A stretch of DNA of 64,000 bases from an uncultured Spirochaetota bacterium. GTDB lineage: Bacteria > Spirochaetota > Spirochaetia > SZUA-6 > Fen-1364. Below, piece by piece: positions 7,989 to 23,444 of the stretch (position 1 is its first letter; each line of letters begins with the position of its first letter). Location of the stretch: assembly GCA_963820525.1 (NCBI GenBank), contig CAWGAA010000001.1:800001-864000 (forward strand), written 5' to 3'. A program made the position numbers and the translations under genes. The notes beneath the pieces are model-generated. The model had not been told where the DNA came from and made no database searches. It saw only the letters and a list, made by a program, of their open reading frames with translations.

Positions 7989-8063
7989 AATGACCTTAGC
8001 AGGCATGATCGAATAGCCCTATCTATGTGGACATCGCCGTAGGATCAGGGCTTAAGGAGAGCC

Positions 8064-8179: not shown

Positions 8180-8264
8180 CCACCCAAAGCTCTTCACTTA
8201 TTGATATCTAATTTATTGCAAAGTAGATTCAAATACTTTTCTATCTTAAAGAAGGGGGTTTTAC

Positions 8265-8801
8265 ATGAAACGTACTCTTGCTGGTCTTTGTCTTTTACTC
8301 ACTGTTTTTACTGGATGTGCAACAATGAAAGAGAGAGAAAATTCGAGTTCCTCTTTTATAATTGCATATTTTAAGCCTCCTGAAGGAGATAGATTTGGAG
8401 GTGGTGATATTCGTCCTTTTGGACAAGTTATTGCCGCGCCTTTACAATATAGTTCTTTAGATGAAGGTTATTATTATGCAGCAAATGTCTCTCCAGGAAA
8501 GTATTACATTCAATCCGTAGACATGTTCTCCCTTTTAGGAAGAAAGACAAAGTATTATTTTGGAACAGTACAGATAGGTGGGTATGAGCAATCATCATTT
8601 ACTGTTGGATCTAACGAAGTTAAATTTCTTGGAGCTTTTACTTTTAAAGAAACCGGCAAAGTAGACATTTTCGGTGTACACGAATCAAAGATTGTTATGG
8701 ATAATAATATAACCGCCAAGGACTGCATTAAATATATTCTTAACAAGATAACGGCTGCTACCTGGAAACAAAGACTTACTGAAGAATTGAATAGATTATA
8801 A
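8265..8801 (+). CDS. Hypothetical lipoprotein (cassette gene)
   Basis: Signal peptide with lipobox FTGC. Confidence 0.8.
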   Translation: MKRTLAGLCLLLTVFTGCATMKERENSSSSFIIAYFKPPEGDRFGGGDIRPFGQVIAAPLQYSSLDEGYYYAANVSPGKYYIQSVDMFSLLGRKTKYYFGTVQIGGYEQSSFTVGSNEVKFLGAFTFKETGKVDIFGVHESKIVMDNNITAKDCIKYILNKITAATWKQRLTEELNRL

Positions 8802-8903
8802 AATCCTCATGTACTCTTTTCCTTTAGCTCTATTTCTATATAAATTATGACTCAAACCCCAAGATAATTAGAATTATTGAAAATCTGGTTTTTACTTGGT
8901 GGG

Positions 8904-9989
8904 CCTGAATTCAACCTCGAAGTGCAACGATTCTTATTTTTCATGATACACCTCCTGGGGCGTTCTGTAGCCGTGCCGTTTTCTAGGCCTTGAGTTTAGG
9001 CTAAAGGCAATCTGCTCGCATAGAGCTTGAGTGACATCCCTCATGCAGGTTTTCTTTGGAAGATACTGACGGATCAAACCGTTTAGGTTCTCGTTGCTGC
9101 CTCGCTCCCAGGAATGATAAGGCGTTGCAAAGTAGCATTTCAGTTCGGAATGATCCTCCAGGGTCCTGTAGTCATGGAATTCTGTACCGTTGTCCAAGGT
9201 GAGTGTCTTGAAGTTGGCTACGTTCTCCCTAATAGCCGGCAGTGCTGCCTCTGTTACTGAGGCTGCTGTTCTTGAGCTCATTTTCCTTATGATAGCAAAT
9301 CCCGACTTTCGTTCCACCAGAGTGAGGATGCAGTGATGAAGGTCCCTGCCCATGACGGTGTCGCCCTCCCAATGACCCAATTCTTTACGAGTTTCAACCT
9401 CTGGAGGCCTCGTTGAAATATGGCGTTTTCCTGGGAGAATTCCTCTTGAATCCCTTGAATTGTAACGTTTTCGCCGCAGTTTCGGCATGATTCGAAGGTT
9501 CTTAAATAGCGTTCCTCCATGTTTCTTATCGTTCAGGATGTACTTGTAGATGGTCTCGTGACTGATTGTGAATGATCCATTCTTCTTCTGGTAAGCAGAT
9601 ATCTGTTCAGGGCTCCATTTCTCTTTCAAAAGAACAGTTACTTGCTGCATTTGTTCTGGGCTGAAGCGCGAACCGCGCCTTTCACGTCGCCGTCTTGCAG
9701 TTGAATAGCTTTGGGCAAGCTCAGCTCGGTACCTCAAGTCATGGTTAGTTCGGTTTCGATGAAGTTCCCTGCTGATCGTGCTAGCTGAGCGACCTAGCTC
9801 ACGTGCAATGTCAGCTTTAGATCTTCGGCTTACTAAAAAAGCTGTTATGGTGTATCTTTCTTCTCGAGAGAGTTGGTGATAGTTATTCATGTATGAATCC
9901 CCTTTCTTGGCGGAAAATGGAGGCATACAATAATATCTCAGCTCTCTCATTTTTAATCCATATCGTTGCGCTTACTATTTGAACCTGCG
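8904..9989 (-). mobile_element. IS30-family IS, copy 1
   Basis: 28 bp imperfect IRs ending ..GCAACGAT; 3 bp GGG duplication; inserted in the attC R'' box. Confidence 0.9.
8934..9890 (-). CDS. IS30-family transposase
   Basis: LGHWEGDTV, TLTLDNGTEF, PYHSWERGSNENLNGLIRQYLPK. Confidence 0.95.
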   Translation of the reverse strand: MNNYHQLSREERYTITAFLVSRRSKADIARELGRSASTISRELHRNRTNHDLRYRAELAQSYSTARRRRERRGSRFSPEQMQQVTVLLKEKWSPEQISAYQKKNGSFTISHETIYKYILNDKKHGGTLFKNLRIMPKLRRKRYNSRDSRGILPGKRHISTRPPEVETRKELGHWEGDTVMGRDLHHCILTLVERKSGFAIIRKMSSRTAASVTEAALPAIRENVANFKTLTLDNGTEFHDYRTLEDHSELKCYFATPYHSWERGSNENLNGLIRQYLPKKTCMRDVTQALCEQIAFSLNSRPRKRHGYRTPQEVYHEK

Positions 9990-9991
9990 GG

Positions 9992-10107
9992 GTGTAACAT
10001 GCTGTTGGAGTTGACCGCCTAGGCTACGCTTCGTTACCAATAACTACGCGCGTTGAAGCCTTTGTACTTGTATGATTCGGGGCGGCAACTCAACAGCGTC
10101 GTTATAT
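9992..10107 (+). repeat. attC site 6
   Basis: GTGTAAC...GTTATAT with the family core. Confidence 0.9.
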
Positions 10108-10394
10108 CCAATCTAGATTTATATTGATTATCGAATAGGCAACGAATTAGTAATTCAATAAAAAGAGATAATACGTGTTTCAATAGCTTGTTTAACCATG
10201 ATGGCGTTGGCATTGCTCTGGAAGGATGGCGGTGTTGTACTAATGTTGCTTGCTTGCTCTTAGTTTCAATACACTGCACGTCACCGTGGCTTAATGGTCA
10301 ACGATTTCATTATAGGGCTCGGATCAAGCTCTTTCTCTTGAAACAACAACTCTTTTCTGTTGTCCTCAACGCCATCATACTGGATGGATATAAC
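10102..10394 (+). ncRNA. ORF-less cassette B (candidate structured RNA 10198-10378)
   Basis: Same conserved stems as cassette A. Confidence 0.55.
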
Positions 10395-10502
10395 ATGCTG
10401 TTGGAGTTGTCCGCCTAGGCTACGCGTCGTTACTTATAGCTACGTTTGCTAGGGTTCCTTCGGTTGCTGATTCGGGGCGGCAACTCAACAGCGTCGTTAT
10501 CT
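10388..10502 (+). repeat. attC site 7
   Basis: ATATAAC...GTTATCT. Confidence 0.9.
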
Positions 10503-10787
10503 CCATCTAGATTTATATTGATTAGCAAATAGGCGACAAATTCTTAATTCAAGAATATTGGATAAGACGTTTTTCAATAGCTTGCTTTCCCATGATGGCG
10601 TTGGCATTGAGCGGGAAGGATGGCGGTGTTGTACTAGTTTGCCTGCTTGTTTTTAGGTTCAATACACTGCTCGTCACCTTGGCTTATTGTCACCGATTAC
10701 ACTATAGGGCTCGGATCAAGTTCTTTTAATTGATTCGATTGCTCTTTTTCTGCTTTCCTCAACGCCATCATACTGGATGTAGATAAC
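10497..10787 (+). ncRNA. ORF-less cassette C (candidate structured RNA 10592-10771)
   Basis: Close relative of cassette A. Confidence 0.55.
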
Positions 10788-10893
10788 ATGTCGTTGCAGC
10801 TGACCGCCCAAGCTACGCATCGTCACTTAAAACTACGCGCGCTCAGGTATTTCTTTTTTTGATGCGGGGCGGCAGCTGAACTCCTCGTTATCT
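10781..10893 (+). repeat. attC site 8
   Basis: AGATAAC...GTTATCT, GCAGCTG subtype. Confidence 0.9.
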
Positions 10894-10904
10894 CTCCCTA
10901 AGAC

Positions 10905-10933
10905 TTGACTGTTGTGCATATTTTATGCATCAT
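10905..10933 (+). promoter_or_regulatory. Putative sigma70 promoter of vapBC with palindromic operator
   Basis: TTGACT-17-CATCAT, 7 nt before ATG; TGCATATTTTATGCA palindrome. Confidence 0.55.
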
Positions 10934-10940
10934 TGTGCAT

Positions 10941-11141
10941 ATGAGAACTACTCTTAACATCGACCCTACTCTCCTTAGAGAGGCAACAAGACTAACAGGG
11001 ATATCCGAAAAGACTTCCCTTGTCCGTATGGGCCTTCAGGCCCTGATCTCCAAAGAAAGTTCTAAGCGTTTGGCTGAGCTTGGCGGAACTGAAAAGAGTC
11101 TTCGTTCTATCCCAAGAAGACGACCTAAGAAGACAGCATGA
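10941..11141 (+). CDS. vapB: VapB-type antitoxin (ribbon-helix-helix)
   Basis: MRTTLNIDPTLLREATRLTG; overlaps the PIN toxin start. Confidence 0.85.
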   Translation: MRTTLNIDPTLLREATRLTGISEKTSLVRMGLQALISKESSKRLAELGGTEKSLRSIPRRRPKKTA

Positions 11142-11494
11142 TCCTAGTTGATACTTCTGTTTGGATAGATCATTTTCGAAATGACAATGCAGAGCTGCGC
11201 AAGTTATTAAACAACAATGAAGTTATGACTCACCCTTTTATTATTGGTGAACTTGCTTGCGGACTCATACAAAATAGATCAGAAATACTTAACCTTCTGG
11301 CCGAGTTGCCTGCTGTTATAACGGCAGATCATCAGGAAGTGCTAAAGCTCATCGAATCAAAGAAACTCTATGGTTCTGGAATTGGATTGATTGATGCACA
11401 TTTAATTGCATCAGCGCTAATAACCAAAGTTGGAATCTTCACTCTTGATAAACCTTTGGCAAAAGCAACTTCATATCTTGGAATAAACCAATAA
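11138..11494 (+). CDS. vapC: VapC PIN-domain toxin
   Basis: MILVDTSVWIDH, IGELACG, IDAHLIASA, TLDK. Confidence 0.92.
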   Translation: MILVDTSVWIDHFRNDNAELRKLLNNNEVMTHPFIIGELACGLIQNRSEILNLLAELPAVITADHQEVLKLIESKKLYGSGIGLIDAHLIASALITKVGIFTLDKPLAKATSYLGINQ

Positions 11495-11640
11495 ATTTCA
11501 TAGTTATCATAGGATGTTTCATTCAACTGTTGAGAATCTCTATATTCAGTATCCTCATAGAAGGTTATATTGACCCGTTTGGAATAAGTCATGCTTGGAT
11601 ATCAGTTTTCCAGCACATAAAACGAATTAATGAAAGGGAG

Positions 11641-11756
11641 AGATAACATGCTGTTGGAGTTGACCCCTTAGCCTACGTTTTGAAAGTGTAGCATGTGTTG
11701 CTAAACCGCCACTACCCTGCTTCGGGCGGCGGGGCAACTCAACAGCGTTGTTATCT
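11641..11756 (+). repeat. attC site 9
   Basis: AGATAAC..GAGTTGACCCC...GGGGCAACTCAACAGCGTT GTTATCT. Confidence 0.9.
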
Positions 11757-11939
11757 CCCCCAAGGGAGCATTCAAGTGCGATTGTCAAGACCTCGCACAA
11801 TTAGCGATTTCGGCATCTTGCACCTGTCGACAGGCTGACCAGTCTGCAGATTGGCGATTTTAATTTGCCTATGTTCTTACTGACCCAAATCGATTGAAGT
11901 ACGCTTAGGCATTGCACCTTAGCGTTCAGGGAGAATCCG

Positions 11940-12467
11940 ATGAAGTTTGATCTGACCCTAAACTGGCAGTCCGTGTTGACCCTTGCCGCCTTGCTTTCAT
12001 CATGGACAATTCCCCTTTTGCTCGACTTTCTTCGGAGACGAAGGCAGTCGGATATTGTCCGCAAGAGTATCTCTTTATATCTTGATTCACTCGAGATCAA
12101 AGCTAGGCTTTGGCTGCGCTTCTATTTTGACGGGGACGTAAAACTTCCCAAAGGAAGGAGATCGTTTGAATACACAAACAAGCAAAATCACGACGCGTTG
12201 GAGGACCTGTTCCGTTCAAGTGATCTCGGCAACTTGGAGAAGGAGGAGTTGCTGAAATTCGTCCAGTACTTTAAGGCCTCACAGGAAATGAGGTCCCAGG
12301 AAGACTTCAAAAAATACGTTTCCCGGATAGGTGACGAATCGCTTAGGCAAGTGTTTCCGCAGGGCCCCCACTTTCAGAATATACTAAGGACTACCGCCAA
12401 GGCAATGTCTGCTTCTCATAGGTTGGCCGCTCGACAAGCCGGGGCCACAGTTCCTCGTCGCAGGTAG
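11940..12467 (+). CDS. Hypothetical protein with N-terminal membrane anchor (cassette gene)
   Basis: RBS GGGAG; single ORF between attC 9 and 10. Confidence 0.7.
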   Translation: MKFDLTLNWQSVLTLAALLSSWTIPLLLDFLRRRRQSDIVRKSISLYLDSLEIKARLWLRFYFDGDVKLPKGRRSFEYTNKQNHDALEDLFRSSDLGNLEKEELLKFVQYFKASQEMRSQEDFKKYVSRIGDESLRQVFPQGPHFQNILRTTAKAMSASHRLAARQAGATVPRRR

Positions 12468-12524
12468 CGCATTCATAGATGCCGCGATTCTATCGATCAT
12501 CGTGGGTCAATTACGAAATGCGGG

Positions 12525-12640
12525 AGATAACATGCTGTTGGAGTTGACCGCCTAGGCTATGCTTCGTAACCAATAGCTACGCGCATTAAAGCATTTGTAC
12601 TTGGATGATTCGGGGCGGCAACTCAACAGCGTCGTTATGA
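12525..12640 (+). repeat. attC site 10
   Basis: AGATAAC...GTTATGA. Confidence 0.9.
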
Positions 12641-12796
12641 CGCCTCAAGATTTGGCCGATTGAGGCAAACGGACTGGAATGCCTCGGGGAAGAGGGTCAG
12701 GCGTCCATGCCTGACCCTCTTCCCCTCATTGGTATCATTCGAGACCTCTATCTCCGAACTATAATCAAATATACCGAATCGCCTTGTGAGGGCTCC

Positions 12797-12825
12797 TTGA
12801 CTATACATACCAATAATGGTATGTT
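12797..12825 (+). promoter_or_regulatory. Putative sigma70 promoter with operator of the HigBA-like TA
   Basis: TTGACT-17-TATGTT; palindrome ACATACCA-ATAA-TGGTATGT. Confidence 0.65.
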
Positions 12826-12830
12826 TCGAC

Positions 12831-13163
12831 ATGCAATATGAAGTCGTATTGTTGGAGCCTGCAACGGACTTCCTACGCAACCTCGAGGGGAAGCTGCAAG
12901 CAAAAGCGTTCCGATCAATCGAACTTCTAGGGCATTTTGGAACACAATTGATCATGCCGCACTCCAAAAAGCTCAGCGGATACGATCTGTGGGAATTGCG
13001 GGTTCGACATGCAGGCATGATCTGCCGACTATTCTATTTCCACGATCGGGATAGGATCTTTGTTGTGACTTCTGGATATGTTAAGAAGAGTGACAGGACT
13101 AATCCAAAGGAGATAAAGAGGGCACTCCGGCTTAAGATGGAGCACCTTGGAGGGACCACATAA
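12831..13163 (+). CDS. RelE/ParE (HigB/gp49-like) toxin
   Basis: MPHSKKLSGYDLWELRV, RLFYF, GYVKKSDRTNPKEI. Confidence 0.85.
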   Translation: MQYEVVLLEPATDFLRNLEGKLQAKAFRSIELLGHFGTQLIMPHSKKLSGYDLWELRVRHAGMICRLFYFHDRDRIFVVTSGYVKKSDRTNPKEIKRALRLKMEHLGGTT

Positions 13164-13456
13164 TGAAGCAGACTCGATATGAGGATTTGCTCAACCGTCA
13201 ATTGAAGAACCCTCAGTTCCGGAAAGAATATGAAGCGTTAGAGGGTGAGTTCACCCTGGCAAAAGAAATAATCGCACTTCGTATCAAGAATAGACTTACG
13301 CAGAAACAACTCGCACAGCAAATCGGAACCTCCCAGCCCGCCATTGCTCGGATTGAATCTGGTAGCTACCGGAATGTCTCGCTCTCATTTCTTAGGCGGA
13401 TCGCAGATGCACTTGGAGCCGTGCCGGAAATACATCTGAAAAAGAAAGGTGCATGA
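13163..13456 (+). CDS. Xre-HTH antitoxin (HigA-like)
   Basis: LTQKQLAQQIGTSQPAIARIESG. Confidence 0.88.
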   Translation: MKQTRYEDLLNRQLKNPQFRKEYEALEGEFTLAKEIIALRIKNRLTQKQLAQQIGTSQPAIARIESGSYRNVSLSFLRRIADALGAVPEIHLKKKGA

Positions 13457-13642
13457 GCGCTATTACAACCGTGAGCTGAATAGCTTTCCACGCCCTCGCC
13501 ATCCCTGGCTCGGGCGCATGTCCTGATAGATAGCGGAAGCGCTGACAATTTGTAGACGATCCATATTGGAGTCGTCATAACATGCTGTTGGAGTTGACCG
13601 CCTAGGCTATGCGTCGCTTAGCTACAGCTTGTCGGGTAATTG

Positions 13643-14029
13643 TTAGCTCTCCGGAGCCCGCTTACCGTGGATACGCGGGGTTGGCGTCTTTCTCGCGGGG
13701 GACGGTAGCTTTTTAAGAAGGCGATCGGTGACGCGCAACGACATCCTCTCCATTTGAGCGATGATTCTGTCCAGTTCGCGGCCGGTGGCAACCCAGACGG
13801 CGAGAAGGTCGGCCTGTTCGCGCGTCAGGCGGACTGTGACGGTTTTTCCATCCACCTTGCGGGTCCACTGGTAGTAGGGACCGTGAAGGCGGGGCGGAGA
13901 AGCTTGGCAGGCGCAGCCGGGCTTGCCGCAGGCCATGAAGCGTTTCAGCAAGGTGCCACGGCGGAAATAGCCGACTCGGCTGAGGGCGCGCTGGAGCTGC
14001 TGGTAGTTTTGCGGAAGATCGGTTTTCAT
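13643..14029 (-). CDS. DUF6788-like Cys/His protein carried by the IS
   Basis: RGTL..RFMACGKPGCAC....HGPYYQWTRKVDGKTVT. Confidence 0.7.
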   Translation of the reverse strand: MKTDLPQNYQQLQRALSRVGYFRRGTLLKRFMACGKPGCACQASPPRLHGPYYQWTRKVDGKTVTVRLTREQADLLAVWVATGRELDRIIAQMERMSLRVTDRLLKKLPSPARKTPTPRIHGKRAPES

Positions 14030-14236
14030 AGAAATATATCTTGACAGAAAACTGTCTACAGTTATAATACTGTTAGATATGTTGCCCGTCAAGCTTCCCC
14101 GGCGTTGGTTTTTCTCCCGGATCCTCGCTTCGATGTGCGTGTGCGTCTTTCTCGGCCTGGGCATCTTGATCTTCTCCAGCGCCCCCTCCATGGCAGCCGC
14201 CGATAGAGCAATCGTTCCCCAGGAGGTCCCTCGTCC

Positions 14237-15628
14237 ATGCAAACCACTTCTGCCAGTGCCAAGCGCCAACCCGCTCTGATTCCCAGGTCTATGCGCCCGA
14301 CCATCTCCATCGCGGAGGACCACAGGCTGGTCCAAATGACCGACACCCTGGACTGGACAGAAATGGAGGAGCAAGCCCAGCAGATACGATCCGCCAAGCT
14401 CAAGAACGCCGCTGGGCGGCCGCCGCACCTGCGCGCCTTGCTGGGAGCTATGCTGCTGATGGCCACCCGAAAGCTGACATACCGGGAGGCCGAGGACTTG
14501 ATCTGCTACTACGCCCCAGCGCGCTACTTGTGCGGGCTGACCGAAACGGAGTGGACCCCGGACTTCACCACCATCCAGGACTTCACCGAACTGATGGGCG
14601 AGCAGGGGATCAAGCTCATCAATCAATGCGTGGTGCAAATGGCGGTGAAACAAAAGTTGGCAGATCCCAAGACACTGGTGGCCGACACCACAGCGCAGGA
14701 AGCGGCGATCCCCTATCCCAACGAGATGGGGCTCATGGCCGGCTTTCTGACCTCGGTGGCTGCCGCAACCCGAAAAGTTGGCCGAGCGCTGAAGGGATTC
14801 GTGCAGGAGACGGTGAGTCAATTCGAGGCGGCCAAGAAGAAGGGGCGAGAGTACCGCCTGTTCGCCAAGACCAAGGAGAGCAAGGATCGGGTGATGGGGC
14901 AGATGATCGCCATCGTCAAGAAGCTCAACGAGCATCTGAGCAAGGCGCTGGGCGCCCCTGCCGCACAGTGGGAAAAGCTACGCAAGCATGCAATTGTGGC
15001 CAAAAGCAAGCTGGTTCAGTTGCAGGAAACGATGAGCAAACTGATCCCGCAGATCCGCTACTGGATTCGCACGGGCTGCGTGGCCAGCGGCAAGATCATC
15101 AGCCTGCATATCCCGCAGCTCTACAGCATCGTACGCGGCAAAGTGGGCAAATCGGTGGAGTTTGGGCTGAGCTGGGGCATCAGGCGACTGGCGGGGGGGT
15201 ACCTGCTGGCCACGCTGGCCCCGAATCGCCGCGAGTTACAGGACACGAAGTTCGCGGTGCGAGCGGTCAAAGACCACATCGCGCTCTTTGGCAAGGCGCC
15301 GCTGGCTTATGCCTACGACCGTGGTGGATACAGCGCGGAGAATGTCTCCACCTTGAAGAAGTTGGGGGTCAAGGATGTGGGACTGGCCCCCCGTGGACGT
15401 ACGCAGTGGTCGGTAAGCGGGCCGGTGCGCGACCGGCTGGTCAGAGAGAGGGCAATGGTGGAGGCGGGAATCGGCACCATCAAGAGCCCGAGATACGGGT
15501 TCAATCGTCCAGCTGCTCGTTCGGAGGCCATGATGGGAGCGTGTGGGCAGCGCGCTGTGTTGGGATTCAACACCAACAAGCTGATCCGCGAACTTGCCGG
15601 GCGAAAGGGGATGACGCTGAACGGCTAA
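14237..15628 (+). CDS. DDE transposase (IS5-like)
   Basis: RBS AGGAGG; VADTTAQEAAIPYP, GKVGKSVEFG, AYDRGG, RAMVEAGIGTIK. Confidence 0.85.
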   Translation: MQTTSASAKRQPALIPRSMRPTISIAEDHRLVQMTDTLDWTEMEEQAQQIRSAKLKNAAGRPPHLRALLGAMLLMATRKLTYREAEDLICYYAPARYLCGLTETEWTPDFTTIQDFTELMGEQGIKLINQCVVQMAVKQKLADPKTLVADTTAQEAAIPYPNEMGLMAGFLTSVAAATRKVGRALKGFVQETVSQFEAAKKKGREYRLFAKTKESKDRVMGQMIAIVKKLNEHLSKALGAPAAQWEKLRKHAIVAKSKLVQLQETMSKLIPQIRYWIRTGCVASGKIISLHIPQLYSIVRGKVGKSVEFGLSWGIRRLAGGYLLATLAPNRRELQDTKFAVRAVKDHIALFGKAPLAYAYDRGGYSAENVSTLKKLGVKDVGLAPRGRTQWSVSGPVRDRLVRERAMVEAGIGTIKSPRYGFNRPAARSEAMMGACGQRAVLGFNTNKLIRELAGRKGMTLNG

Positions 15629-15933
15629 CGGAATACGGGACGCCTGGTCACGAGACTGACAGTGCACCAGCGGGGTACGCACACAAGACACACAGCGCAC
15701 CGGAAGGCGCGACATAGGTCCGCGGCCCGTCGAACACCGAGCCAACGGGCGCCTGAATTACCCGACAAACTGTAGCTATAGCTACGCTCATTGAAGCCTT
15801 TGTACTTGGATGATTCGGGGCGGCAACTCAACAGCGTCGTTATCTTGCCATAGTAAATACCCAGTTGTGCATTTTTCATGCCATTGCATTTGTTTTAAGA
15901 ATTCATCACAACATTAAGCATGATTACCATATG

Positions 15934-15962
15934 TTGACACTGTGCGCACAATGGGGTATATT
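15934..15962 (+). promoter_or_regulatory. Putative sigma70 promoter with operator of the BrnT-like TA
   Basis: TTGACA-17-TATATT; TGTGCGCACA palindrome in the spacer. Confidence 0.7.
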
Positions 15963-15970
15963 CCTTATTG

Positions 15971-16249
15971 ATGCAGTTCGCCTTTGACAAGGAGAAGAAT
16001 GACCTTCTTTATAAACGGCGTGGGGTAACTTTTCCCATGGTAATTGAGGCGATTGCAGATAAGGGAATTCTATTGAATTTTGATCACCCAAATCAATTGA
16101 AATATCCAAACCAAAAGGTACTTGTTGTTGATTTGGAAGGATATGCATACTGCGTACCTTATATTATTCAAGGAACTACTTGGTTCTTGAAAACGATCTA
16201 TCCAAGCAGACGTTTCAAGTACCTAATCGAAGGAGAAACCAATGGATAG
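15971..16249 (+). CDS. BrnT-like toxin
   Basis: FAFDKEKNDLLYKRRGVTF, FLKTIYPSRR. Confidence 0.8.
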   Translation: MQFAFDKEKNDLLYKRRGVTFPMVIEAIADKGILLNFDHPNQLKYPNQKVLVVDLEGYAYCVPYIIQGTTWFLKTIYPSRRFKYLIEGETNG

Positions 16250-16544
16250 ATATAATCCGAAATACATTGACCGTGAAGAGAAAGATCTCATGCAAGACAT
16301 TGACAAAATAGATCTCCGTAAGGTTAGAAAGCCGACCCAAAAGGTACAAGGACAACTCAGGAGAGCTGCAAAGAGGCACCTAGAAAAAGAATTGAAAATG
16401 AATATTAGAATTGACCCCTATGAATTATCAAAGATTAAAGAAAAGGCAGAAATGGAAGGATTAAAATACCAAAGCCTCGTAAAGAGCGTACTACACAAAT
16501 ACATTACTGGCCAATTGATTGAAAAAGGGAAAAAAGCTGTATAG
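16242..16544 (+). CDS. BrnA/CopG-like antitoxin
   Basis: MNIRID..LSKIKEKAEMEGLKYQSLVKSVLHKY. Confidence 0.8.
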   Translation: MDRYNPKYIDREEKDLMQDIDKIDLRKVRKPTQKVQGQLRRAAKRHLEKELKMNIRIDPYELSKIKEKAEMEGLKYQSLVKSVLHKYITGQLIEKGKKAV

Positions 16545-16586
16545 GAATTATGGCTAAAATCTTATTATTAAAATAGATAAATGGCA

Positions 16587-16700
16587 AGATAACATGCGGT
16601 TGGAGTTGTCCGCCTAGGCTACGTTCATCAACAGTAAGCTAAGTTTGCTAGGGTCCTTCGGTTGCTGATTCGGGGCGGCAACTCAACCGCGTCGTTATCT
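16587..16700 (+). repeat. attC site 12
   Basis: AGATAAC ATGCGGTTGG...CAACCGCGTC GTTATCT (compensatory change in the stem). Confidence 0.9.
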
Positions 16701-16984
16701 CCATCTAGATTTATATTGATTAGCAATGAAGTTAAGAATTATTAATTAAATAATCTTGGATAAGACGCTTTTCAATTTCATGTTTGCCCATGATGGCGTT
16801 GGCCTTTCTCTGGAAGGATGGCGGTGTTGTACTAGGTTGCACGCTTGTTTTTAGTTTCAATGCATGGCACGTCACCTTGGCTTATTATCACCGATTACAT
16901 TCAACGGCTCTAATCAAGCTCTTTCAATTGATTCGCTAGATCTTTTCTGCTTTCCTCAACGCCATCATACTGGATGGAGATAAC
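16695..16984 (+). ncRNA. ORF-less cassette D (candidate structured RNA 16790-16968)
   Basis: Family stems conserved. Confidence 0.55.
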
Positions 16985-17091
16985 ATGTCGTTGCAGCTGA
17001 CCGCCCAAGCTACGCGTCGTCACTTGAAACTATGCGTGCTCAGCTATTTCCTTTTTTTGAGGCGGGGCGGCAGCTGAACTCCTTGTTATAT
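16978..17091 (+). repeat. attC site 13
   Basis: AGATAAC...GTTATAT, GCAGCTG subtype. Confidence 0.9.
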
Positions 17092-17374
17092 CCATCTAGA
17101 TTTATATTGATTAGCGAATAGACAACGAATTATTAATTCAATAATAGAAGATAAGACGCTTTTCAATAGCTTTTTGCCCATGATGGCGTTGACATTGCTC
17201 CGTAAGGATGGCGGTGTTGTACTACATTGCTTGCTTTTCTTTAGTTTCAATACATGGCACGTCACCTCGTCTTGCCAACACCGATTGCATTCAACGGCTC
17301 GGATCAAGCTCCTTCAATTGATTCGATAGACCTTTTCTGCTTTCCTCAACGCCATCATACTGGATGGATATAAC
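17086..17374 (+). ncRNA. ORF-less cassette E (candidate structured RNA 17180-17358)
   Basis: Family stems conserved. Confidence 0.55.
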
Positions 17375-17482
17375 ATGCTGTTGGAGTTGTCCGCCTAGGC
17401 TACGCGTCGTTACTTATAGCTACGTTTCCTAGGGTTCCTTCGGTTGCTGATTCGGGGCGGCAACTCAACAGCGTCGTTATAT
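17368..17482 (+). repeat. attC site 14
   Basis: ATATAAC...GTTATAT. Confidence 0.9.
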
Positions 17483-17769
17483 CCAATCTAGATTTATATT
17501 GATTATCGAATAGGCAACGAATTAGTAATTCAATAAAAAGAGATAATACGTGTTTCAATAGCTTGTTTAACCATGATGGCGTTGGCATTGCTCTGGAAGG
17601 ATGGCGGTGTTGTACTAATGTTGCTTGCTTGCTCTTAGTTTCAATACACTGCACGTCACCGTGGCTTAATGGTCAACGATTTCATTATAGGGCTCGGATC
17701 AAGCTCTTTCTCTTGAAACAACAACTCTTTTCTGTTGTCCTCAACGCCATCATACTGGATGGATATAAC
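17477..17769 (+). ncRNA. ORF-less cassette F (apparent copy of B; candidate RNA 17573-17753)
   Basis: Sequence matches 10102-10394. Confidence 0.55.
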
Positions 17770-17877
17770 ATGCTGTTGGAGTTGTCCGCCTAGGCTACGC
17801 GTCGTTACTTATAGCTACGTTTGCTAGGGTTCCTTCGGTTGCTGATTCGGGGCGGCAACTCAACAGCGTCGTTATCT
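17763..17877 (+). repeat. attC site 15
   Basis: ATATAAC...GTTATCT, matches attC 7. Confidence 0.9.
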
Positions 17878-18155
17878 CCATCTAGATTTATATTGATTAG
17901 CAATGAAGTTAAGAATTATTAATTAAATAATCTTGGATAAGACGCTTTTCAATTTCATGTTTGCCCATGATGGCGTTGGCCTTTCTCTGGAAGGATGGCG
18001 GTGTTGTACTAGGTTGCACGCTTGTTTTTAGTTTCAATGCATGGCACGTCACCTTGGCTTATTATCACCGATTACATTCAACGGCTCGAATCAAGCTCTT
18101 TCAATTGATTCGCTAGATCTTTTCTGCTTTCCTCAACGCCATCATACTGGATGGA
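17872..18155 (+). ncRNA. ORF-less cassette G (near copy of D; candidate RNA 17967-18145), ended by IS30
   Basis: Differs from D at GGCTCGAATC vs GGCTCTAATC. Confidence 0.55.
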
Positions 18156-19241
18156 CCTGAATTCAACCTCGAAGTGCAACGATTCTTATTTTTCATGATA
18201 CACCTCCTGGGGCGTTCTGTAGCCGTGCCGTTTTCTAGGCCTTGAGTTTAGGCTAAAGGCAATCTGCTCGCATAGAGCTTGAGTGACATCCCTCATGCAG
18301 GTTTTCTTTGGAAGATACTGACGGATCAAACCGTTTAGGTTCTCGTTGCTGCCTCGCTCCCAGGAATGATAAGGCGTTGCAAAGTAGCATTTCAGTTCGG
18401 AATGATCCTCCAGGGTCCTGTAGTCATGGAATTCTGTACCGTTGTCCAAGGTGAGTGTCTTGAAGTTGGCTACGTTCTCCCTAATAGCCGGCAGTGCTGC
18501 CTCTGTTACTGAGGCTGCTGTTCTTGAGCTCATTTTCCTTATGATAGCAAATCCCGACTTTCGTTCCACCAGAGTGAGGATGCAGTGATGAAGGTCCCTG
18601 CCCATGACGGTGTCGCCCTCCCAATGACCCAATTCTTTACGAGTTTCAACCTCTGGAGGCCTCGTTGAAATATGGCGTTTTCCTGGGAGAATTCCTCTTG
18701 AATCCCTTGAATTGTAACGTTTTCGCCGCAGTTTCGGCATGATTCGAAGGTTCTTAAATAGCGTTCCTCCATGTTTCTTATCGTTCAGGATGTACTTGTA
18801 GATGGTCTCGTGACTGATTGTGAATGATCCATTCTTCTTCTGGTAAGCAGATATCTGTTCAGGGCTCCATTTCTCTTTCAAAAGAACAGTTACTTGCTGC
18901 ATTTGTTCTGGGCTGAAGCGCGAACCGCGCCTTTCACGTCGCCGTCTTGCAGTTGAATAGCTTTGGGCAAGCTCAGCTCGGTACCTCAAGTCATGGTTAG
19001 TTCGGTTTCGATGAAGTTCCCTGCTGATCGTGCTAGCTGAGCGACCTAGCTCACGTGCAATGTCAGCTTTAGATCTTCGGCTTACTAAAAAAGCTGTTAT
19101 GGTGTATCTTTCTTCTCGAGAGAGTTGGTGATAGTTATTCATGTATGAATCCCCTTTCTTGGCGGAAAATGGAGGCATACAATAATATCTCAGCTCTCTC
19201 ATTTTTAATCCATATCGTTGCGCTTACTATTTGAACCTGCG
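18156..19241 (-). mobile_element. IS30-family IS, copy 2
   Basis: Matches copy 1; inserted at an R'' box. Confidence 0.9.
18186..19142 (-). CDS. IS30-family transposase
   Basis: Same protein as copy 1. Confidence 0.95.
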   Translation of the reverse strand: MNNYHQLSREERYTITAFLVSRRSKADIARELGRSASTISRELHRNRTNHDLRYRAELAQSYSTARRRRERRGSRFSPEQMQQVTVLLKEKWSPEQISAYQKKNGSFTISHETIYKYILNDKKHGGTLFKNLRIMPKLRRKRYNSRDSRGILPGKRHISTRPPEVETRKELGHWEGDTVMGRDLHHCILTLVERKSGFAIIRKMSSRTAASVTEAALPAIRENVANFKTLTLDNGTEFHDYRTLEDHSELKCYFATPYHSWERGSNENLNGLIRQYLPKKTCMRDVTQALCEQIAFSLNSRPRKRHGYRTPQEVYHEK

Positions 19242-19243
19242 GA

Positions 19244-19359
19244 GTCTAACATGCTGTTGGAGTTGACCGCCTAGGCTACGCTTCGCTACATATAGCTACG
19301 CGCGTTGAAGTCTTTGTACTTGGATGATTCGGGGCGGCAACTCAACAGCGTCGTTATAC
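19244..19359 (+). repeat. attC site 16
   Basis: GTCTAAC...GTTATAC. Confidence 0.9.
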
Positions 19360-19457
19360 GGGTCTATTCTTTGGGGCAAGGCTTATTCTGATTAGGGAAC
19401 TTCTGGTTTCATTTGTGATCAAAGCCTGATCTACCTGCTTACATTAAAATGATCCAA

Positions 19458-19487
19458 TTGACAATCTTGAAAACACTCCACTATTAT
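19458..19487 (+). promoter_or_regulatory. Putative sigma70 promoter of the DUF4160/DUF2442 pair
   Basis: TTGACA-18-TATTAT, 5 nt before ATG. Confidence 0.6.
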
Positions 19488-19492
19488 ATGCT

Positions 19493-19753
19493 ATGCCTAC
19501 AATATGTCGTTTTTATGGCATCCTCATCCAGATGTATTTTGATGATCATAGTCCACCCCATTTTCATGTAGTATATAACGAATTCAAAGCCGTCATAGGC
19601 ATCAATGATTTTAGTATATTAGAAGGGGACCTACCGCCGAAAGCTCTTGGCTTAGTTATGGAATGGGCTAGAATACATAAGATTGAATTGCTGAAGGATT
19701 GGGAACTTGCTAAGAAGAAGCAATCCCTATTACCTATTGTTCCTTTAGAATAG
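19493..19753 (+). CDS. DUF4160 family protein (putative TA toxin)
   Basis: MPTICRFYGILIQMYFDDHSPPHFHV, LVMEWARIH. Confidence 0.88.
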   Translation: MPTICRFYGILIQMYFDDHSPPHFHVVYNEFKAVIGINDFSILEGDLPPKALGLVMEWARIHKIELLKDWELAKKKQSLLPIVPLE

Positions 19754-19762
19754 GAGTCTGTC

Positions 19763-20041
19763 ATGTATTTCGACATCGTTGATGCTGAATATATTAGAGA
19801 TTATGAAATCAAACTAAAATTCGCAGACGCTTCGGAAGGAACCGTTGATTTGTCATCCTATATAGATAAGGATACAGTTTTTAGAGCATTTCAAGATCTT
19901 GGCTATTTCAGAAACTTTCAAATAGAATATGGAACATTAGTCTGGGGACAAGGAGAGCTCGACCTTGCACCAGAGACTCTTTATACAATAGCAACTGGAA
20001 AACCGGTTAAGTTTCTTTCACAAAACAGGGCTATTTCATAA
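19763..20041 (+). CDS. DUF2442 family protein (putative TA antitoxin)
   Basis: IKLKFADASEGTVDL, GTLVW...LDLAPETLY. Confidence 0.88.
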   Translation: MYFDIVDAEYIRDYEIKLKFADASEGTVDLSSYIDKDTVFRAFQDLGYFRNFQIEYGTLVWGQGELDLAPETLYTIATGKPVKFLSQNRAIS

Positions 20042-20097
20042 ACTTATTTATTCAAGCTGCCTATTCTATCTGAACGAAATATCTGTTAAAGAGACCC

Positions 20098-20214
20098 GTA
20101 TAACATGCTGTTGTAGCAGACCGCTTGGACTACGCATCGTTACTGATAGCTACGCGTGTTAAAACCAATTGTACCTGGATGATGCGGCGCGGCTGCTCAA
20201 CCGCGTCGTTAGGC
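20098..20214 (+). repeat. attC site 17
   Basis: GTATAAC..AGCAGACCGC...GCGGCTGCTCAACCGCGTC GTTAGGC. Confidence 0.88.
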
Positions 20215-20261
20215 TCCTAATTCATTACTGCTTCAGCCTTCATATAAAAGGAGGTCAGGCT

Positions 20262-21383
20262 ATGTTAAATAAGATTATCAAAACAATGTTGTTGCTCTCA
20301 GTGGTTTCGTTTAATGGGTGCATTTCAGATACGAAAGCAATTATTTCAGAGGAAACCAATCCAAGTTTAAATGTAAGCCTCCATGGCTTTAACTTTGGTG
20401 CTTGGGAAAAGAGAGGTTGGGATTCATCATTACCCGTGGACGAGGGATTGCAGTTCGCGGTTGATGAAGGGGCTAATTTCCTTGCACTGGATTGGCCTGT
20501 TTGCTTTGAAGATAATGGTCATATTGTCCCAGATGGAGGAGATTTGCACCCACCATTCACTGACATTGAATCAGTGATTGAAAAAGCAAAAGCTTTGCGA
20601 CTCTATGTCATGTTGAAACCACACGTGACCATGACCGATATCGCACAAAATAGAAACTATTATAATACAGATATAAAAGTATTCCTGCCCGCCAATTTTT
20701 TCCCTGACTGGAAAGATTACTTGGTAGCGCTTGCGGACACGGCGCAGATAATGAACGTTGACGCGATATGCATTGGTACTGAAATAAACTGCCTCGATTG
20801 GATGTATCGGACAGAATGGCTAGATATAATTTCTACACTCAGGCTCTCTTATTCAGGGGACTTGACATATGATGCTGTGTTTACAGTTTGGTACGAGGTA
20901 AAGGGCATCAACAATGTTGTTTTTTGGGACGCATTAGATTTTATTGGCTGTTCTCTCTATGTTCCGATAACTCGAGACGACAACGCTAGCGTTACAGATA
21001 TAATGAAGGGCTGGACTAACAATCAGGTTGGCACAATAAAGAATATAGTGAAATACTTACAAGACATTTCGAAGCGTTATAATAAACAGATCATGGCATT
21101 AGAGGGAGGATATCAGAGCGTTTCCGGAGGACTTTTTAATGTAAATGACCCACCTAATGAAAACAGGGTCGCCAATAATGACCTTCAATTTCGTGGCCTT
21201 TCTGCATATCTTGAAGTATTGTATAAGAACAAGGGTACTTGGCTAAAAGGCATTAGCTTGTGGCAGATTTCTCCGGTTACAATGACTCCAATCGAGCTAA
21301 CTAAGATGTGGTATACACAAGAATTCACAGTGTATAAAAAGCCTGCTGCTGATGTCGTTAAACAGTATTACACAATGCAATGA
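20262..21383 (+). CDS. Putative GH113-like TIM-barrel glycoside hydrolase lipoprotein (cassette gene)
   Basis: RBS AGGAGG; lipobox-like FNGC; VMLKPHV, CIGTE, LTYDA, FWDALDFIG, EGGYQS, KPAADVV. Confidence 0.7.
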   Translation: MLNKIIKTMLLLSVVSFNGCISDTKAIISEETNPSLNVSLHGFNFGAWEKRGWDSSLPVDEGLQFAVDEGANFLALDWPVCFEDNGHIVPDGGDLHPPFTDIESVIEKAKALRLYVMLKPHVTMTDIAQNRNYYNTDIKVFLPANFFPDWKDYLVALADTAQIMNVDAICIGTEINCLDWMYRTEWLDIISTLRLSYSGDLTYDAVFTVWYEVKGINNVVFWDALDFIGCSLYVPITRDDNASVTDIMKGWTNNQVGTIKNIVKYLQDISKRYNKQIMALEGGYQSVSGGLFNVNDPPNENRVANNDLQFRGLSAYLEVLYKNKGTWLKGISLWQISPVTMTPIELTKMWYTQEFTVYKKPAADVVKQYYTMQ

Positions 21384-21457
21384 TGTTTTAAAGACCGCCA
21401 TATCACAAAGCATTAATGATTATTGATGTCCGAATACAAACAAAACTCAATTAGGAG

Positions 21458-22543
21458 CCTGAATTCAACCTCGAAGTGCAACGATTCTTATTTTTCATGA
21501 TACACCTCCTGGGGCGTTCTGTAGCCGTGCCGTTTTCTAGGCCTTGAGTTTAGGCTAAAGGCAATCTGCTCGCATAGAGCTTGAGTGACATCCCTCATGC
21601 AGGTTTTCTTTGGAAGATACTGACGGATCAAACCGTTTAGGTTCTCGTTGCTGCCTCGCTCCCAGGAATGATAAGGCGTTGCAAAGTAGCATTTCAGTTC
21701 GGAATGATCCTCCAGGGTCCTGTAGTCATGGAATTCTGTACCGTTGTCCAAGGTGAGTGTCTTGAAGTTGGCTACGTTCTCCCTAATAGCCGGCAGTGCT
21801 GCCTCTGTTACTGAGGCTGCTGTTCTTGAGCTCATTTTCCTTATGATAGCAAATCCCGACTTTCGTTCCACCAGAGTGAGGATGCAGTGATGAAGGTCCC
21901 TGCCCATGACGGTGTCGCCCTCCCAATGACCCAATTCTTTACGAGTTTCAACCTCTGGAGGCCTCGTTGAAATATGGCGTTTTCCTGGGAGAATTCCTCT
22001 TGAATCCCTTGAATTGTAACGTTTTCGCCGCAGTTTCGGCATGATTCGAAGGTTCTTAAATAGCGTTCCTCCATGTTTCTTATCGTTCAGGATGTACTTG
22101 TAGATGGTCTCGTGACTGATTGTGAATGATCCATTCTTCTTCTGGTAAGCAGATATCTGTTCAGGGCTCCATTTCTCTTTCAAAAGAACAGTTACTTGCT
22201 GCATTTGTTCTGGGCTGAAGCGCGAACCGCGCCTTTCACGTCGCCGTCTTGCAGTTGAATAGCTTTGGGCAAGCTCAGCTCGGTACCTCAAGTCATGGTT
22301 AGTTCGGTTTCGATGAAGTTCCCTGCTGATCGTGCTAGCTGAGCGACCTAGCTCACGTGCAATGTCAGCTTTAGATCTTCGGCTTACTAAAAAAGCTGTT
22401 ATGGTGTATCTTTCTTCTCGAGAGAGTTGGTGATAGTTATTCATGTATGAATCCCCTTTCTTGGCGGAAAATGGAGGCATACAATAATATCTCAGCTCTC
22501 TCATTTTTAATCCATATCGTTGCGCTTACTATTTGAACCTGCG
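21458..22543 (-). mobile_element. IS30-family IS, copy 3
   Basis: Matches copy 1; inserted at an R'' box. Confidence 0.9.
21488..22444 (-). CDS. IS30-family transposase
   Basis: Same protein as copy 1. Confidence 0.95.
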   Translation of the reverse strand: MNNYHQLSREERYTITAFLVSRRSKADIARELGRSASTISRELHRNRTNHDLRYRAELAQSYSTARRRRERRGSRFSPEQMQQVTVLLKEKWSPEQISAYQKKNGSFTISHETIYKYILNDKKHGGTLFKNLRIMPKLRRKRYNSRDSRGILPGKRHISTRPPEVETRKELGHWEGDTVMGRDLHHCILTLVERKSGFAIIRKMSSRTAASVTEAALPAIRENVANFKTLTLDNGTEFHDYRTLEDHSELKCYFATPYHSWERGSNENLNGLIRQYLPKKTCMRDVTQALCEQIAFSLNSRPRKRHGYRTPQEVYHEK

Positions 22544-22545
22544 AA

Positions 22546-22661
22546 GCCTAACATGCTGTTGGAGCAGACCGCTGGGACTACGCATCGTTACTGATTCTTG
22601 CGCGTGTTAAAGCAAATGTACCTATATGATTCGGCGCGGCTGCTCAACCGCGTCGTTATAT
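22546..22661 (+). repeat. attC site 18
   Basis: GCCTAAC...GTTATAT, same subtype as attC 17. Confidence 0.88.
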
Positions 22662-22729
22662 CTTCATATATTAATGTCTGATCTCGTAGAAGTAATTTTT
22701 ACTAATCCAATAATGAACAGAGGTATCAT

Positions 22730-23371
22730 ATGTTTGGTACCAATATAATGAAGACTCTACTCAAAGCTATTCTTAGTAAGGATACCCATACTGTTGAAAA
22801 GCTACTTACAAAAGCGTTATCGCGCTCAACATTCAATATTAATGATTCAGATGAATCGAAGGGACTTACTCCTTTGGTAGCGGCAGCTAGACTTAGTACT
22901 TATGAGATTTCCAAATTGTTAGTAGAAAATGGAGCAGATATTAATAAAGCTGGAAATGACGGGACTTTGCCTCTTGAATCAGCCTTTTTAAATGATAATC
23001 TTGATACTGCAAAGTTTCTATTAGAAAAAGGCGCTGATATCCATAAGACTAGAAAGGAATTCTGTCTACTCTCAACTGCTATAATGAGAAATCGAATAGA
23101 TATTCTAAAGCTCCTAACAAGAATTGGTCTTGATCCAAATGGCTCAGATACAAATTCACTTACACCGTTAATGTTATCTGCAAGAGATGGAAATATTGAA
23201 GCATTTCAAGTATTACTTGAAGCTGGAGCCGATATCCTTATTATTAGATCAGATTATGATGGAAATCAGCTAAATCTTTTAGATATTTTAGACCTTAATA
23301 TTTCAGGTACAAATGACAATGCCTTAAAGGACCGCTATTTTCAAATTAAGAAATTGATTATAAATCATTAG
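22730..23371 (+). CDS. Ankyrin repeat protein (cassette gene)
   Basis: GLTPLVAAA, LVENGADIN, GTLPLESA, LTPLMLSARDG, LLEAGAD. Confidence 0.9.
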   Translation: MFGTNIMKTLLKAILSKDTHTVEKLLTKALSRSTFNINDSDESKGLTPLVAAARLSTYEISKLLVENGADINKAGNDGTLPLESAFLNDNLDTAKFLLEKGADIHKTRKEFCLLSTAIMRNRIDILKLLTRIGLDPNGSDTNSLTPLMLSARDGNIEAFQVLLEAGADILIIRSDYDGNQLNLLDILDLNISGTNDNALKDRYFQIKKLIINH

Positions 23372-23444
23372 ATCTACACTGCATTCTAACTGAACTTTAT
23401 TTATAAGAGGTCAAATTTTGAATATAAATATTGAAATCCTGAAG

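Follow-up and report, generated by a model that had tools for sequence, protein, structure and literature searches.

An IS30-family insertion sequence found in fixed register and orientation at the outer edge of integron attC sites

Introduction

Integrons spread antibiotic resistance and, in marine bacteria, store genes by the hundred; attC sites are their currency. The elements usually named as homing to attC are, to our knowledge, of only two kinds; one of these, the group IIC-attC introns, consists of mobile elements that home to the sites in a fixed orientation, near the R'' box. The locus described here raises the question of whether an insertion sequence (IS) of another type can single out the same site. 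The window analyzed, a stretch of 64,000 nucleotides from an uncultured Spirochaetota bacterium, contains three copies of an IS (starting at 8904, 18156 and 21458). An earlier note on this DNA had remarked that all three lie in one orientation and one register relative to the R'' box of the adjacent attC, and the flank sequences are as it gave them.

The element and its family

The features of the window on which the analysis draws are the following.

8904..9989, minus strand: IS copy A, 1086 bp; IRR at 8904 (CCTGAATTCAAC...), IRL at 9989 (...TTTGAACCTGCG)
8934..9950, minus strand: transposase gene of copy A, 338 aa, IS30 family by profile match
8901..8903, no strand: left 3-bp target duplication of copy A, GGG, from flank comparison
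9990..9992, no strand: right target duplication of copy A, GGG, ending on base 1 of R''
9992..10107, plus strand: intact attC of the cassette invaded by copy A, R'' GTGTAAC to R' GTTATAT
18156..19241, minus strand: IS copy B, flanks chimeric (GGA/IS/GAG); transposase gene 18186-19202
19244..19359, plus strand: attC adjoining copy B, R'' GTCTAAC
21458..22543, minus strand: IS copy C, duplication GAG/AAG; transposase gene 21488-22504
22546..22661, plus strand: attC adjoining copy C, R'' GCCTAAC
1..24375, plus strand: distal end of the cassette array, last attC at 24261-24375

The three window copies, each 1086 bp long and mutually identical, end in imperfect terminal repeats (identity at 17/28 positions) with TTCAA and GCAACGAT blocks common to both ends. 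A single ORF encodes a DDE transposase with HTH_38 (residues 24-66), HTH_32 (85-137) and rve (189-280) domains, and neither a reverse transcriptase nor an intron is present. The NF033563 (IS30) profile matches the protein with 294.3 bits (cut-off 80), the runner-up model, IS481, scoring 53 bits, below its threshold of 224. Judged by these profile and domain matches, the element is a member of the IS30 family, as the earlier note had assigned it. Comparison of the transposase sequence with the Protein Data Bank gave no match. In one public sequencing run (X1), a 1086-nt unitig corresponds exactly to positions 8904-9989, at a depth of 27.8 versus 3.2 in the left flank. Among the assembled contigs of public runs, the form in which these were searched, neither a joint across the IS, as an empty site would give, nor an end-to-end joint, as a circle or dimer intermediate with joined ends would give, was listed, which says nothing either way.

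The element shares with the IS30 family (IS30, IS1655 and, as nearest named members by RefSeq product names, ISVa6 and ISVvu6) a single DDE transposase with N-terminal HTH and rve domains, a length of about 1.1 kb, imperfect terminal repeats of about 26-28 bp with a TTCAA...GCAAC pattern, and a 3-bp duplication. It differs in its target, the R'' edge of attC, which is asymmetric, hence the fixed orientation. The family is known for marked target preference, IS30 using hot spots as well as its own ends and IS1655 a consensus. Mimicry of its own ends by the target, in the manner of IS30, was considered for the present element and is not supported: when the target flank was compared site by site with IRL and IRR at shifts of -3 to +6, identity was at most 0.39, a control flank giving about 0.25.

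The target array

The window copies lie in the distal part of a 141-kb chromosomal integron that comprises intI plus about 178 attC. The integrase gene (C1:682092-683030, minus strand) matches TIGR02249 with 410 bits (cut-off 265), and the array (C1:683764-824375) contains 178 attC profile matches, all in one orientation, the first of them 734 bp from intI. Each attC beside a window copy is 116 nt long, from R'' (RYYYAAC) to R' (GTTATAY). The IS-adjoining attC form long hairpins when folded (z-scores of -3.9 and -4.2), the bottom-strand hairpin showing two bulged bases on its R''-L'' arm, and the cassette starts are each complementary to their own R'' region. The array is a true integron and the target sites are attC. 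It is also rich in amplified cassette families.

Position and orientation of the copies

A whole-genome count gave nine copies of the IS, each of 1086 bp, eight of them identical and one with two mismatches. All nine lie inside the integron, on the plus strand of C1 between 762077 and 822543, in identical orientation. In all nine the order is IRL (the transposase-proximal end), 3-bp duplication, last six bases of R''. Thus, in the window, the right flanks read GGG TGTAAC, GAG TCTAAC and AAG CCTAAC, with ATGCTGTTGGAG coming next in every case, and the left flanks are unrelated to one another. The earlier note had placed the left junction after the first base of the R'' heptamer. The register stands, but the joint is better described as a 3-bp target duplication that ends on base 1 of R'' and that, among the three window copies, is perfect only in copy A. 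The attC is left intact, as the note had also claimed, R'' to R' being present beside the copies.

Perfect duplications flank seven of the nine copies (CTG, AAA, CCG, CAA, CCA, AGA and GGG). All seven differ and lie in different cassettes, which indicates independent insertions. The two mismatched cases are copy B (GGA/GAG) and copy C (GAG/AAG, one mismatch). The left flank of copy B (...ACTGGATGGA/GATAAC, the slash marking the joint) belongs to a small-cassette family and its right flank to another attC; this copy is a chimera, probably produced by recombination between two ISs. For copy C, the cassette start GTTAGGCTCC leads to the predicted empty site GGAGCCTAAC. Empty sites are found in uninterrupted paralogous cassettes in three cases: ...gtgtCTG/CCTAAC (one cassette, 98.3%), ...cgtAAA/TATAAC (five cassettes, 100%) and ...tttgCCG/TCTAAC (one cassette, 100%). 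Insertion therefore contributed only the IS plus the duplication.

By our own arithmetic, counting one position and orientation at each of about 183 attC over 2 x 5.05 million positions, the chance of such a placement is about 2e-5 per insertion. Placement could nonetheless be uniform for reasons other than targeting. A few insertions might have been multiplied through cassette duplication or through integrase shuffling of IS-bearing cassettes; amplified cassette families do fill the array and, in Vibrio vulnificus, two copies of a related element have both flanks in common. The nine copies here, however, lie in different cassettes, with different attC sequences and the seven different perfect duplications, IS-free paralogous cassettes exist, and the register recurs beside unrelated cassettes in many genomes (see below), so that this account is highly improbable. 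We give as little credit to the idea that the IS inserts at random and survives only at harmless sites such as a silent, gene-poor array. This idea would accommodate the location of all copies in the distal part of the array, where expression is presumably poor, as well as the accumulation of other IS families there. Yet selection cannot yield single-nucleotide precision and one orientation in 9/9 copies across about 140 kb of equally harmless DNA, and the other IS families of the array occupy other positions in it and are found elsewhere in the genome, two of them serving as an internal control with copies beyond the array.

The IS occupies nine of the 174 attC 5' ends in the array. One L'' type is enriched at occupied sites (8/9 versus 70/165; Fisher p = 0.011), and occupied sites are also enriched in the distal half of the array. 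These biases, which the model developed below leaves unexplained, may stem from local hopping or from additional determinants.

Relatives of the element

Another Spirochaetota genome, from a different genus of the same family, carries two related ISs with 67% and 74% amino acid identity. The register is exact in four of their five copies and offset by one base in the other; the duplication is perfect in three of the five. More widely, ends were called by end patterns, which left out 16 loci of the same clade and 14 of the sister clade as undefinable. Among the clade loci with definable ends, GTT stands at positions -9 to -7 from IRL in 22/42, the expectation by chance being 1 in 64, and at the opposite IS end, taken as a control, in 2/42. 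In the sister clade, GTT is in register at 0/7 loci. Setting aside the metagenome-assembled genome (MAG) of an Endobugula endosymbiont raises the clade figure to 18 of 27 loci, from 17 assemblies; the elements of this set are about 50% identical and come from marine Gammaproteobacteria and Verrucomicrobiota. Folding of the sequences beside the relatives' insertions gives attC hairpins 56-129 nt long. In an automated count of hairpin arms (n = 26), which is noisy and includes some wrong boundaries, the proximal arm is longer in 18, the distal arm in 6, and the two are equal in 2.

Elements resembling ISVa6 and ISVvu6 are in register in 10/14 copies of a Vibrio campbellii record, 7/7 of a V. vulnificus record and 3/5 plasmid loci; in the pJM1 copy (L112) the IRL is truncated, and a further locus (L148) yielded no ends. 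The Vibrio flank fits the 5'-end attC consensus TAACAAACG... as it appears in the accessible text of a published study (PMC4572688). The V. vulnificus record contains duplicated segments that reach past single cassettes and show single-base indels typical of assembly error, so its seven copies represent fewer independent events. In the V. campbellii record, a matching duplication is missing in 10/14 copies.

In the transposase tree all 19 attC-adjacent rows fall within one 34-row clade (SH-aLRT 100). The same clade includes insertions away from attC: 15 copies in the Endobugula MAG, 14 of them with perfect duplications and 4 of the 15 with GTT in register, plus loci L033, L070, L073, L076, L080, L081 and L144/L145 and 4/14 copies of V. 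campbellii. Hence attC specificity across the clade is strong, not absolute. Mapping of the genomic copies and homologues has left the earlier note's proposal of attC-edge specificity standing for the element itself: instead of being remote from attC or scattered over different positions in it, 9/9 copies here are at the edge, and this placement recurs among relatives in Spirochaetota, Verrucomicrobiota and Gammaproteobacteria.

Target recognition

What does the transposase recognize? At the 19 gammaproteobacterial and verrucomicrobial sites, strong conservation is confined to TAACAAG. As R'' is conserved in attC anyway, conservation next to attC cannot by itself separate recognition of sequence from recognition of structure. 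The 15 Endobugula sites away from attC retain, at an identical offset, a weak TAAYA motif (t-a-A-c-A), suggesting that the transposase reads the duplex core of R''.

One alternative is that the transposase binds an attC hairpin, extruded or single-stranded, or else the R''/R' stem at its base. The attC of the three phyla share little beyond R''/R', yet all fold as hairpins; the R''-R' stem has its base exactly where the cut falls; and other elements that target attC probably act on the folded site. Against this, a simple insertion flanked by a 3-bp duplication requires that ordinary duplex DNA be cut with a stagger, whereas cutting across the hairpin stem would leave the IS with R'' at one end and R' at the other, an arrangement that is not seen. 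Moreover, the 15 Endobugula sites show clean duplications and TAAYA without an attC hairpin, and all insertions are at R'' and none at the mirror-image R' end, where a different base follows AAC. Recognition of structure thus appears unlikely, if less so than the other alternatives weighed here. It is very improbable, too, that the integron integrase, as a protein occupying R'' beforehand, guides the insertion in place of DNA readout by the transposase. The joint does coincide with the outer border of the box bound by IntI, and most hosts with attC-adjacent copies have cassette arrays; the motif is nevertheless kept at insertions away from attC, and three plasmid-borne attC were hit, counted regardless of host intI.

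We consider it very probable that this is an active IS30-family element that targets attC by readout of duplex R'', in fixed register and orientation, the sequence-readout model having been built on small samples (9, 19 and 15 sites). According to this model, the DDE transposase would select its target by reading the inverse core (R'') of double-stranded attC, through an N-terminal helix-turn-helix. The chief determinant would be TAAC-A, which occupies +6 to +10 counted from the joint, and a second contact may lie near +24 to +26 (GAC); the A that follows AAC would distinguish R'' from the mirror-image R' end. A 3-bp staggered cut would span the two bases upstream of R'' plus base 1 of R'', and IRL, the transposase-proximal end, would always be joined to the attC side. 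The product reads, in order, cassette ORF, IS (with its transposase gene antisense to the cassettes), 3-bp duplication and intact attC. The IS copies could afterwards provide homology for rearrangements of the array.

Discussion

The two kinds of attC-homing element cited to date differ from the IS described here in their machinery. Group IIC-attC introns are retroelements, combining a ribozyme with a reverse transcriptase and acting on a single-stranded or folded site; the only ORF here is that of a DDE transposase. IS1111-attC elements insert inside attC and produce no duplication, whereas this IS lies at the outer edge, leaves attC whole and is flanked by a 3-bp duplication. As far as the accessible account of the IS1111-attC group goes, its members are ISs that target the attC of integron cassettes specifically and in one orientation. 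The present element behaves alike in its orientation-specific insertion at attC (9/9) and is not a member: the transposase of that group is of the IS110 type, and the one found here is an IS30-type DDE enzyme that matches no IS110 model.

The earlier note had added that attC targeting was not established for IS30 elements. A search of the open literature, with ISfinder and paywalled papers outside its scope, indeed returned no description of attC-edge targeting for any IS30-family member. The paper naming ISVa6 (PMC4572688) is, in its accessible text, silent on the targets of that element. Elements whose IS30-type transposase targets attC thus seem to form a class of integron-targeting element that had not been described before. 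If the model is true, this would be a mechanistically distinct further class beside the IS1111-attC elements and the group IIC-attC introns.

On balance, we lean toward a broader reading, in which an old IS30 clade, spread over Spirochaetota, Verrucomicrobiota and Gammaproteobacteria and including the ISVa6/ISVvu6 relatives of Vibrio superintegrons, would be a dedicated integron parasite that reads duplex R'' (TAAC-A) and docks outside attC. The cassette would remain recombination-competent and carry the IS between integrons and hosts, and the accumulated copies would drive deletions and rearrangements of the arrays. Travel of the IS within the cassette is plausible because attC stays intact; mobile integrons could in this way pick up IS-bearing cassettes. 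The targeting would explain in a simple way why superintegrons contain series of identical, like-oriented IS copies. Such copies would be a ready source of homology for array rearrangement, to which the mismatched duplications (2/9 here, 10/14 in V. campbellii) may bear witness. The IS end also marks the R'' of a cassette to the base, which makes it useful for annotation. The element would also be a tractable example of DDE transposition that is directed by sequence and fixed in orientation, the guide being a short asymmetric motif set at a constant distance from the joint, and a widespread DDE transposon that uses another route to attC would alter the view of how cassette arrays are colonized.

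The element and its insertions

Three repeats with 100% identity begin at positions 8904, 18156 and 21458 of the window (copies A, B and C). Alignment of the three copies with their flanks gives a block of identity of 1086 bp, from CCTGAATTCAAC... to ...TTTGAACCTGCG, beyond which the left flanks diverge immediately. Each copy contains one ORF, on the minus strand, specifying a 338-amino-acid protein with HTH_38, HTH_32 and rve domains. The score of this ORF against the NCBIfam IS30 model (294 bits; cut-off 80) upholds the assignment made in the earlier note, and the element is genuinely a member of the IS30 family. Its ends, the transposase-proximal IRL and the opposite IRR, are imperfect inverted repeats identical at 17 of 28 positions. 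In public run X1, a separate 1086-nt unitig corresponds exactly to window positions 8904-9989 and has a depth of 27.8, as opposed to 3.2 in the unique left flank, which fits the element boundaries and a number of about nine copies. Because the run may be the very sample behind the genome, it lends no independent support.

The genome contains nine copies, all lying in a single orientation between positions 762077 and 822543 of the window's contig, C1. Eight are identical and the ninth has two mismatches. In every copy, three bases separate IRL from the final six bases of R'', one of the two outer boxes of attC. Thus, the common orientation and register that had been noticed in the three window copies extend to all nine, each mapping to the R'' edge. 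A perfect 3-bp duplication flanks seven of them, and all seven are distinct (CTG, AAA, CCG, CAA, CCA, AGA and GGG). Since the duplications, the attC sites and the cassette contents all differ, the copies must result from separate insertion events.

Paralogues of the left flank exist elsewhere in the cassette array for four copies and are lacking for the other five. Uninterrupted paralogous cassettes were found with the junctions ...gtgtCTG/CCTAAC (one paralogue, 98.3% identity), ...cgtAAA/TATAAC (five paralogues, 100%) and ...tttgCCG/TCTAAC (one paralogue, 100%). All three correspond exactly to the site predicted once the IS and one of its two flanking duplicates are taken away. The left flank of copy B is 100% identical to a cassette family reading ...ACTGGATGGA/GATAAC-ATGTCG..., while its right flank reads GAG-TCTAAC-ATGCTG...; the flanks come from different cassettes and copy B is therefore chimeric, most simply through a deletion that would have arisen by recombination between two IS copies. 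Copy C is flanked by GAG and AAG. As the cassette start at this location (GTTAGGCTCC) predicts the empty site GGAGCCTAAC, copy C is an ordinary insertion whose right duplicate later acquired one mismatch. The cassette ORFs beside it (window 20169-21383 and 22730-23371) code for a GH113-like glycoside hydrolase and a protein with ankyrin repeats.

The host integron

An attC profile made from the nine IS-adjacent sites was searched against the whole genome. It yielded 189 matches, 183 of them on the plus strand of C1 and 178 in a single chromosomal integron array (C1:683764-824375) that ends at window position 24375. An integrase gene lies next to it:

C1:682092-683030, strand opposite to the attC array, just ahead of the first attC: integron integrase gene (TIGR02249, 410.7 bits; cut-off 265)

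The attC sites have the ends RYYYAAC and GTTRRRY and fold into long hairpins (z -3.9 and -4.2) with two bulged bases on the bottom strand, in the arm formed by R'' and the inner box L''. Following GTT, each cassette start is the reverse complement of the approximately 12 nt ending in its own R''. Amplified families of gene-less cassettes are present in the array. A second intact integrase with five attC sites (C1:1954228-1963776) and a split integrase remnant with two attC-like matches (contig C3:825829-831145) are both free of the IS30 element.

Within the array, the element occupies 9 of 174 attC 5' ends. By our own arithmetic (one position, one orientation, about 183 sites, a 5.05-Mb genome), the chance of such a location is about 2e-5 per insertion. 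Conceivably, the array could merely be a sink for insertion sequences. Two other IS families are present in the window:

Window 2793-4511 and 5181-6901 (opposite orientation to each other), and C1:697204-698951: 1.75-kb IS with a 487-amino-acid DDE_Tnp_1_4 transposase, three near-identical copies
Window ~13638-15750: 2.1-kb insertion; ORFs on the two strands overlap and have DUF6788 (minus) and DUF772 transposase-like (plus) domains

Unlike the IS30 element, these families are also present at other places on C1, and at least one of them is found on C2 and C3 as well, so that a sink alone does not account for the pattern. The DDE_Tnp_1_4 element, also listed at window 2996-4459 and 5210-6673, has copies of about 79% identity inside and outside the array; beside each window copy lies an attC that is truncated, the 5' halves being at 2737-2792 and 5130-5180 and a 3' half at 6902-6989. 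The 2.1-kb insertion interrupts an attC (5' part 13576-13637, 3' part 15751-15844) and has near-identical copies outside the array on C1, C2 and C3.

The IS30 copies favor attC sites with a ATGCTGTTGGAG arm (8/9 versus 70/165; Fisher p = 0.011). Measured from the start of the array, which is 140.6 kb long, all of them are found at 78-138 kb, with none in the intI-proximal first 78 kb. Site preference, local hopping or cassette age may be responsible for these biases.

Relatives in other genomes

Among 61 kindred genomes, matches at E <= 1e-60 were confined to the source genome and to G014, labelled as an uncultured Spirochaetota MAG, which carries two related elements (67% and 74% amino acid identity). 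Three copies of the first adjoin ATG-CCTAAC, GGT-CATAAC and AGC-CATAAC, the ATG and AGC duplications being perfect. The second is represented by one copy with a CCA duplication ahead of TGTAAC and by another that is off register by one base and has no duplication.

A search of genome contigs gave 79 loci, the nearest relatives beyond G014 being about 50% identical. In the same clade, end patterns allowed ends and flanks to be defined at 42 loci and not at 16. A GTT triplet lies at -9 to -7 from IRL in 22 of the 42 (chance, 1 in 64), as opposed to 2 of 42 when the same test is applied to the other end; 3-bp duplications are perfect at 26 of these 42 loci. A single Candidatus Endobugula MAG accounts for 15 of these loci, with the triplet in four. 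Without it, 18 of 27 loci, from 17 assemblies, are in register; hosts include Alcanivorax, Halioglobus, Microbulbifer, Simiduia, Reinekea, Colwellia, Saccharospirillum and Rubritalea. The adjoining DNA forms attC-type hairpins of 56-129 nt; by a noisy measure, 18 of 26 have their longer arm on the IS side, as the R''-L'' arm would be. The sister clade has the triplet in none of seven definable loci (14 more were not definable). In Endobugula (L040, L043-L053, L058, L077 and L078), this type of IS has spread to no fewer than 15 scattered non-attC sites, where the duplications are clean; the expansion is a burst with relaxed targeting in the genome of an endosymbiont.

In a quick maximum-likelihood tree of 53 transposases (L059, L065, L072, L080 and L104, under 270 amino acids, were omitted), all 19 attC-adjacent rows fall within one 34-row clade (SH-aLRT 100): 3 spirochaete, 3 verrucomicrobial and 13 gammaproteobacterial, counting L027 (one base off) and L069 (variant R''). 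The clade also holds eight non-attC and seven unscored rows.

A protein search of a plasmid collection returned 1340 records, each below 60% identity. The best matches (51-52%) are annotated as "IS30-like element ISVa6 family" or "ISVvu6 family" transposases. Filed as a plasmid, a Vibrio campbellii record of 2.06 Mb has 14 copies, 10 of them with IRL 3 bp from GTTAxx, and the same holds for 7 of 7 in a 40.8-kb V. vulnificus record; the latter represent fewer than seven events because segments are duplicated, with single-base indels. The Vibrio IS flank agrees with the consensus given in PMC4572688 for the 5' end of Vibrio attC sites, TAACAAACG.... Only 4 of the 14 V. campbellii copies (loci L113-L139) retain a matching duplication, and some right flanks are the left flanks of other copies, which points to frequent recombination between IS copies. 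These copies form two clusters in opposite orientation, and the overall pattern suggests repeated IS-IS recombination and one inversion inside the superintegron. Ends were definable in five of six plasmid loci sampled: three are at attC and two are one identical non-attC insertion with a GCT duplication.

Probable mode of target recognition

The clean 3-bp duplications and the empty sites show that this is ordinary DDE transposition into duplex DNA. In 19 gammaproteobacterial and verrucomicrobial attC sites, strong conservation is limited to TAACAAG (positions +6 to +12 relative to the joint), and a GAC around +24 to +26 is conserved less strongly; the spirochaete sites combine GAC at +24 to +26 with either TAACATG or TAACAAG. 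The 15 Endobugula sites form no attC hairpins (duplications are perfect in 14) and retain t-a-A-c-A at the attC-site offset and a C-rich position at +26. The mirror-image R' end reads TAAC-G, as opposed to TAAC-A at R'', and none of the nine genomic copies or of the relatives' aligned sites has an insertion there. We infer that the transposase recognizes TAAC-A in duplex DNA, always equally far from the cleavage position, and this asymmetric motif would set both the side and the orientation of insertion. In IS30, the first helix-turn-helix has a role in hot-spot choice. Mimicry of the element's own ends was also considered; on comparison, the target flank does not resemble them.

With base 1 of R'' restored by the duplication, attC is left intact, as the earlier note had stated. 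Judging from this arrangement, an invaded cassette should still be an integrase substrate.

Targeting of attC is documented for group IIC-attC introns. The IS1111-attC group is likewise documented to target attC, as cited in PMC3971601. Full-text searches of literature with few subscription journals yielded no description of it for an IS30-family element, in line with the earlier view that it was not established; the target rule thus appears to be undescribed so far. The observation made in the window is confirmed, and its interpretation as attC targeting is supported by the nine genomic copies and by the relatives in the clade. The rule is common to a clade found in three phyla, the named Vibrio elements included.
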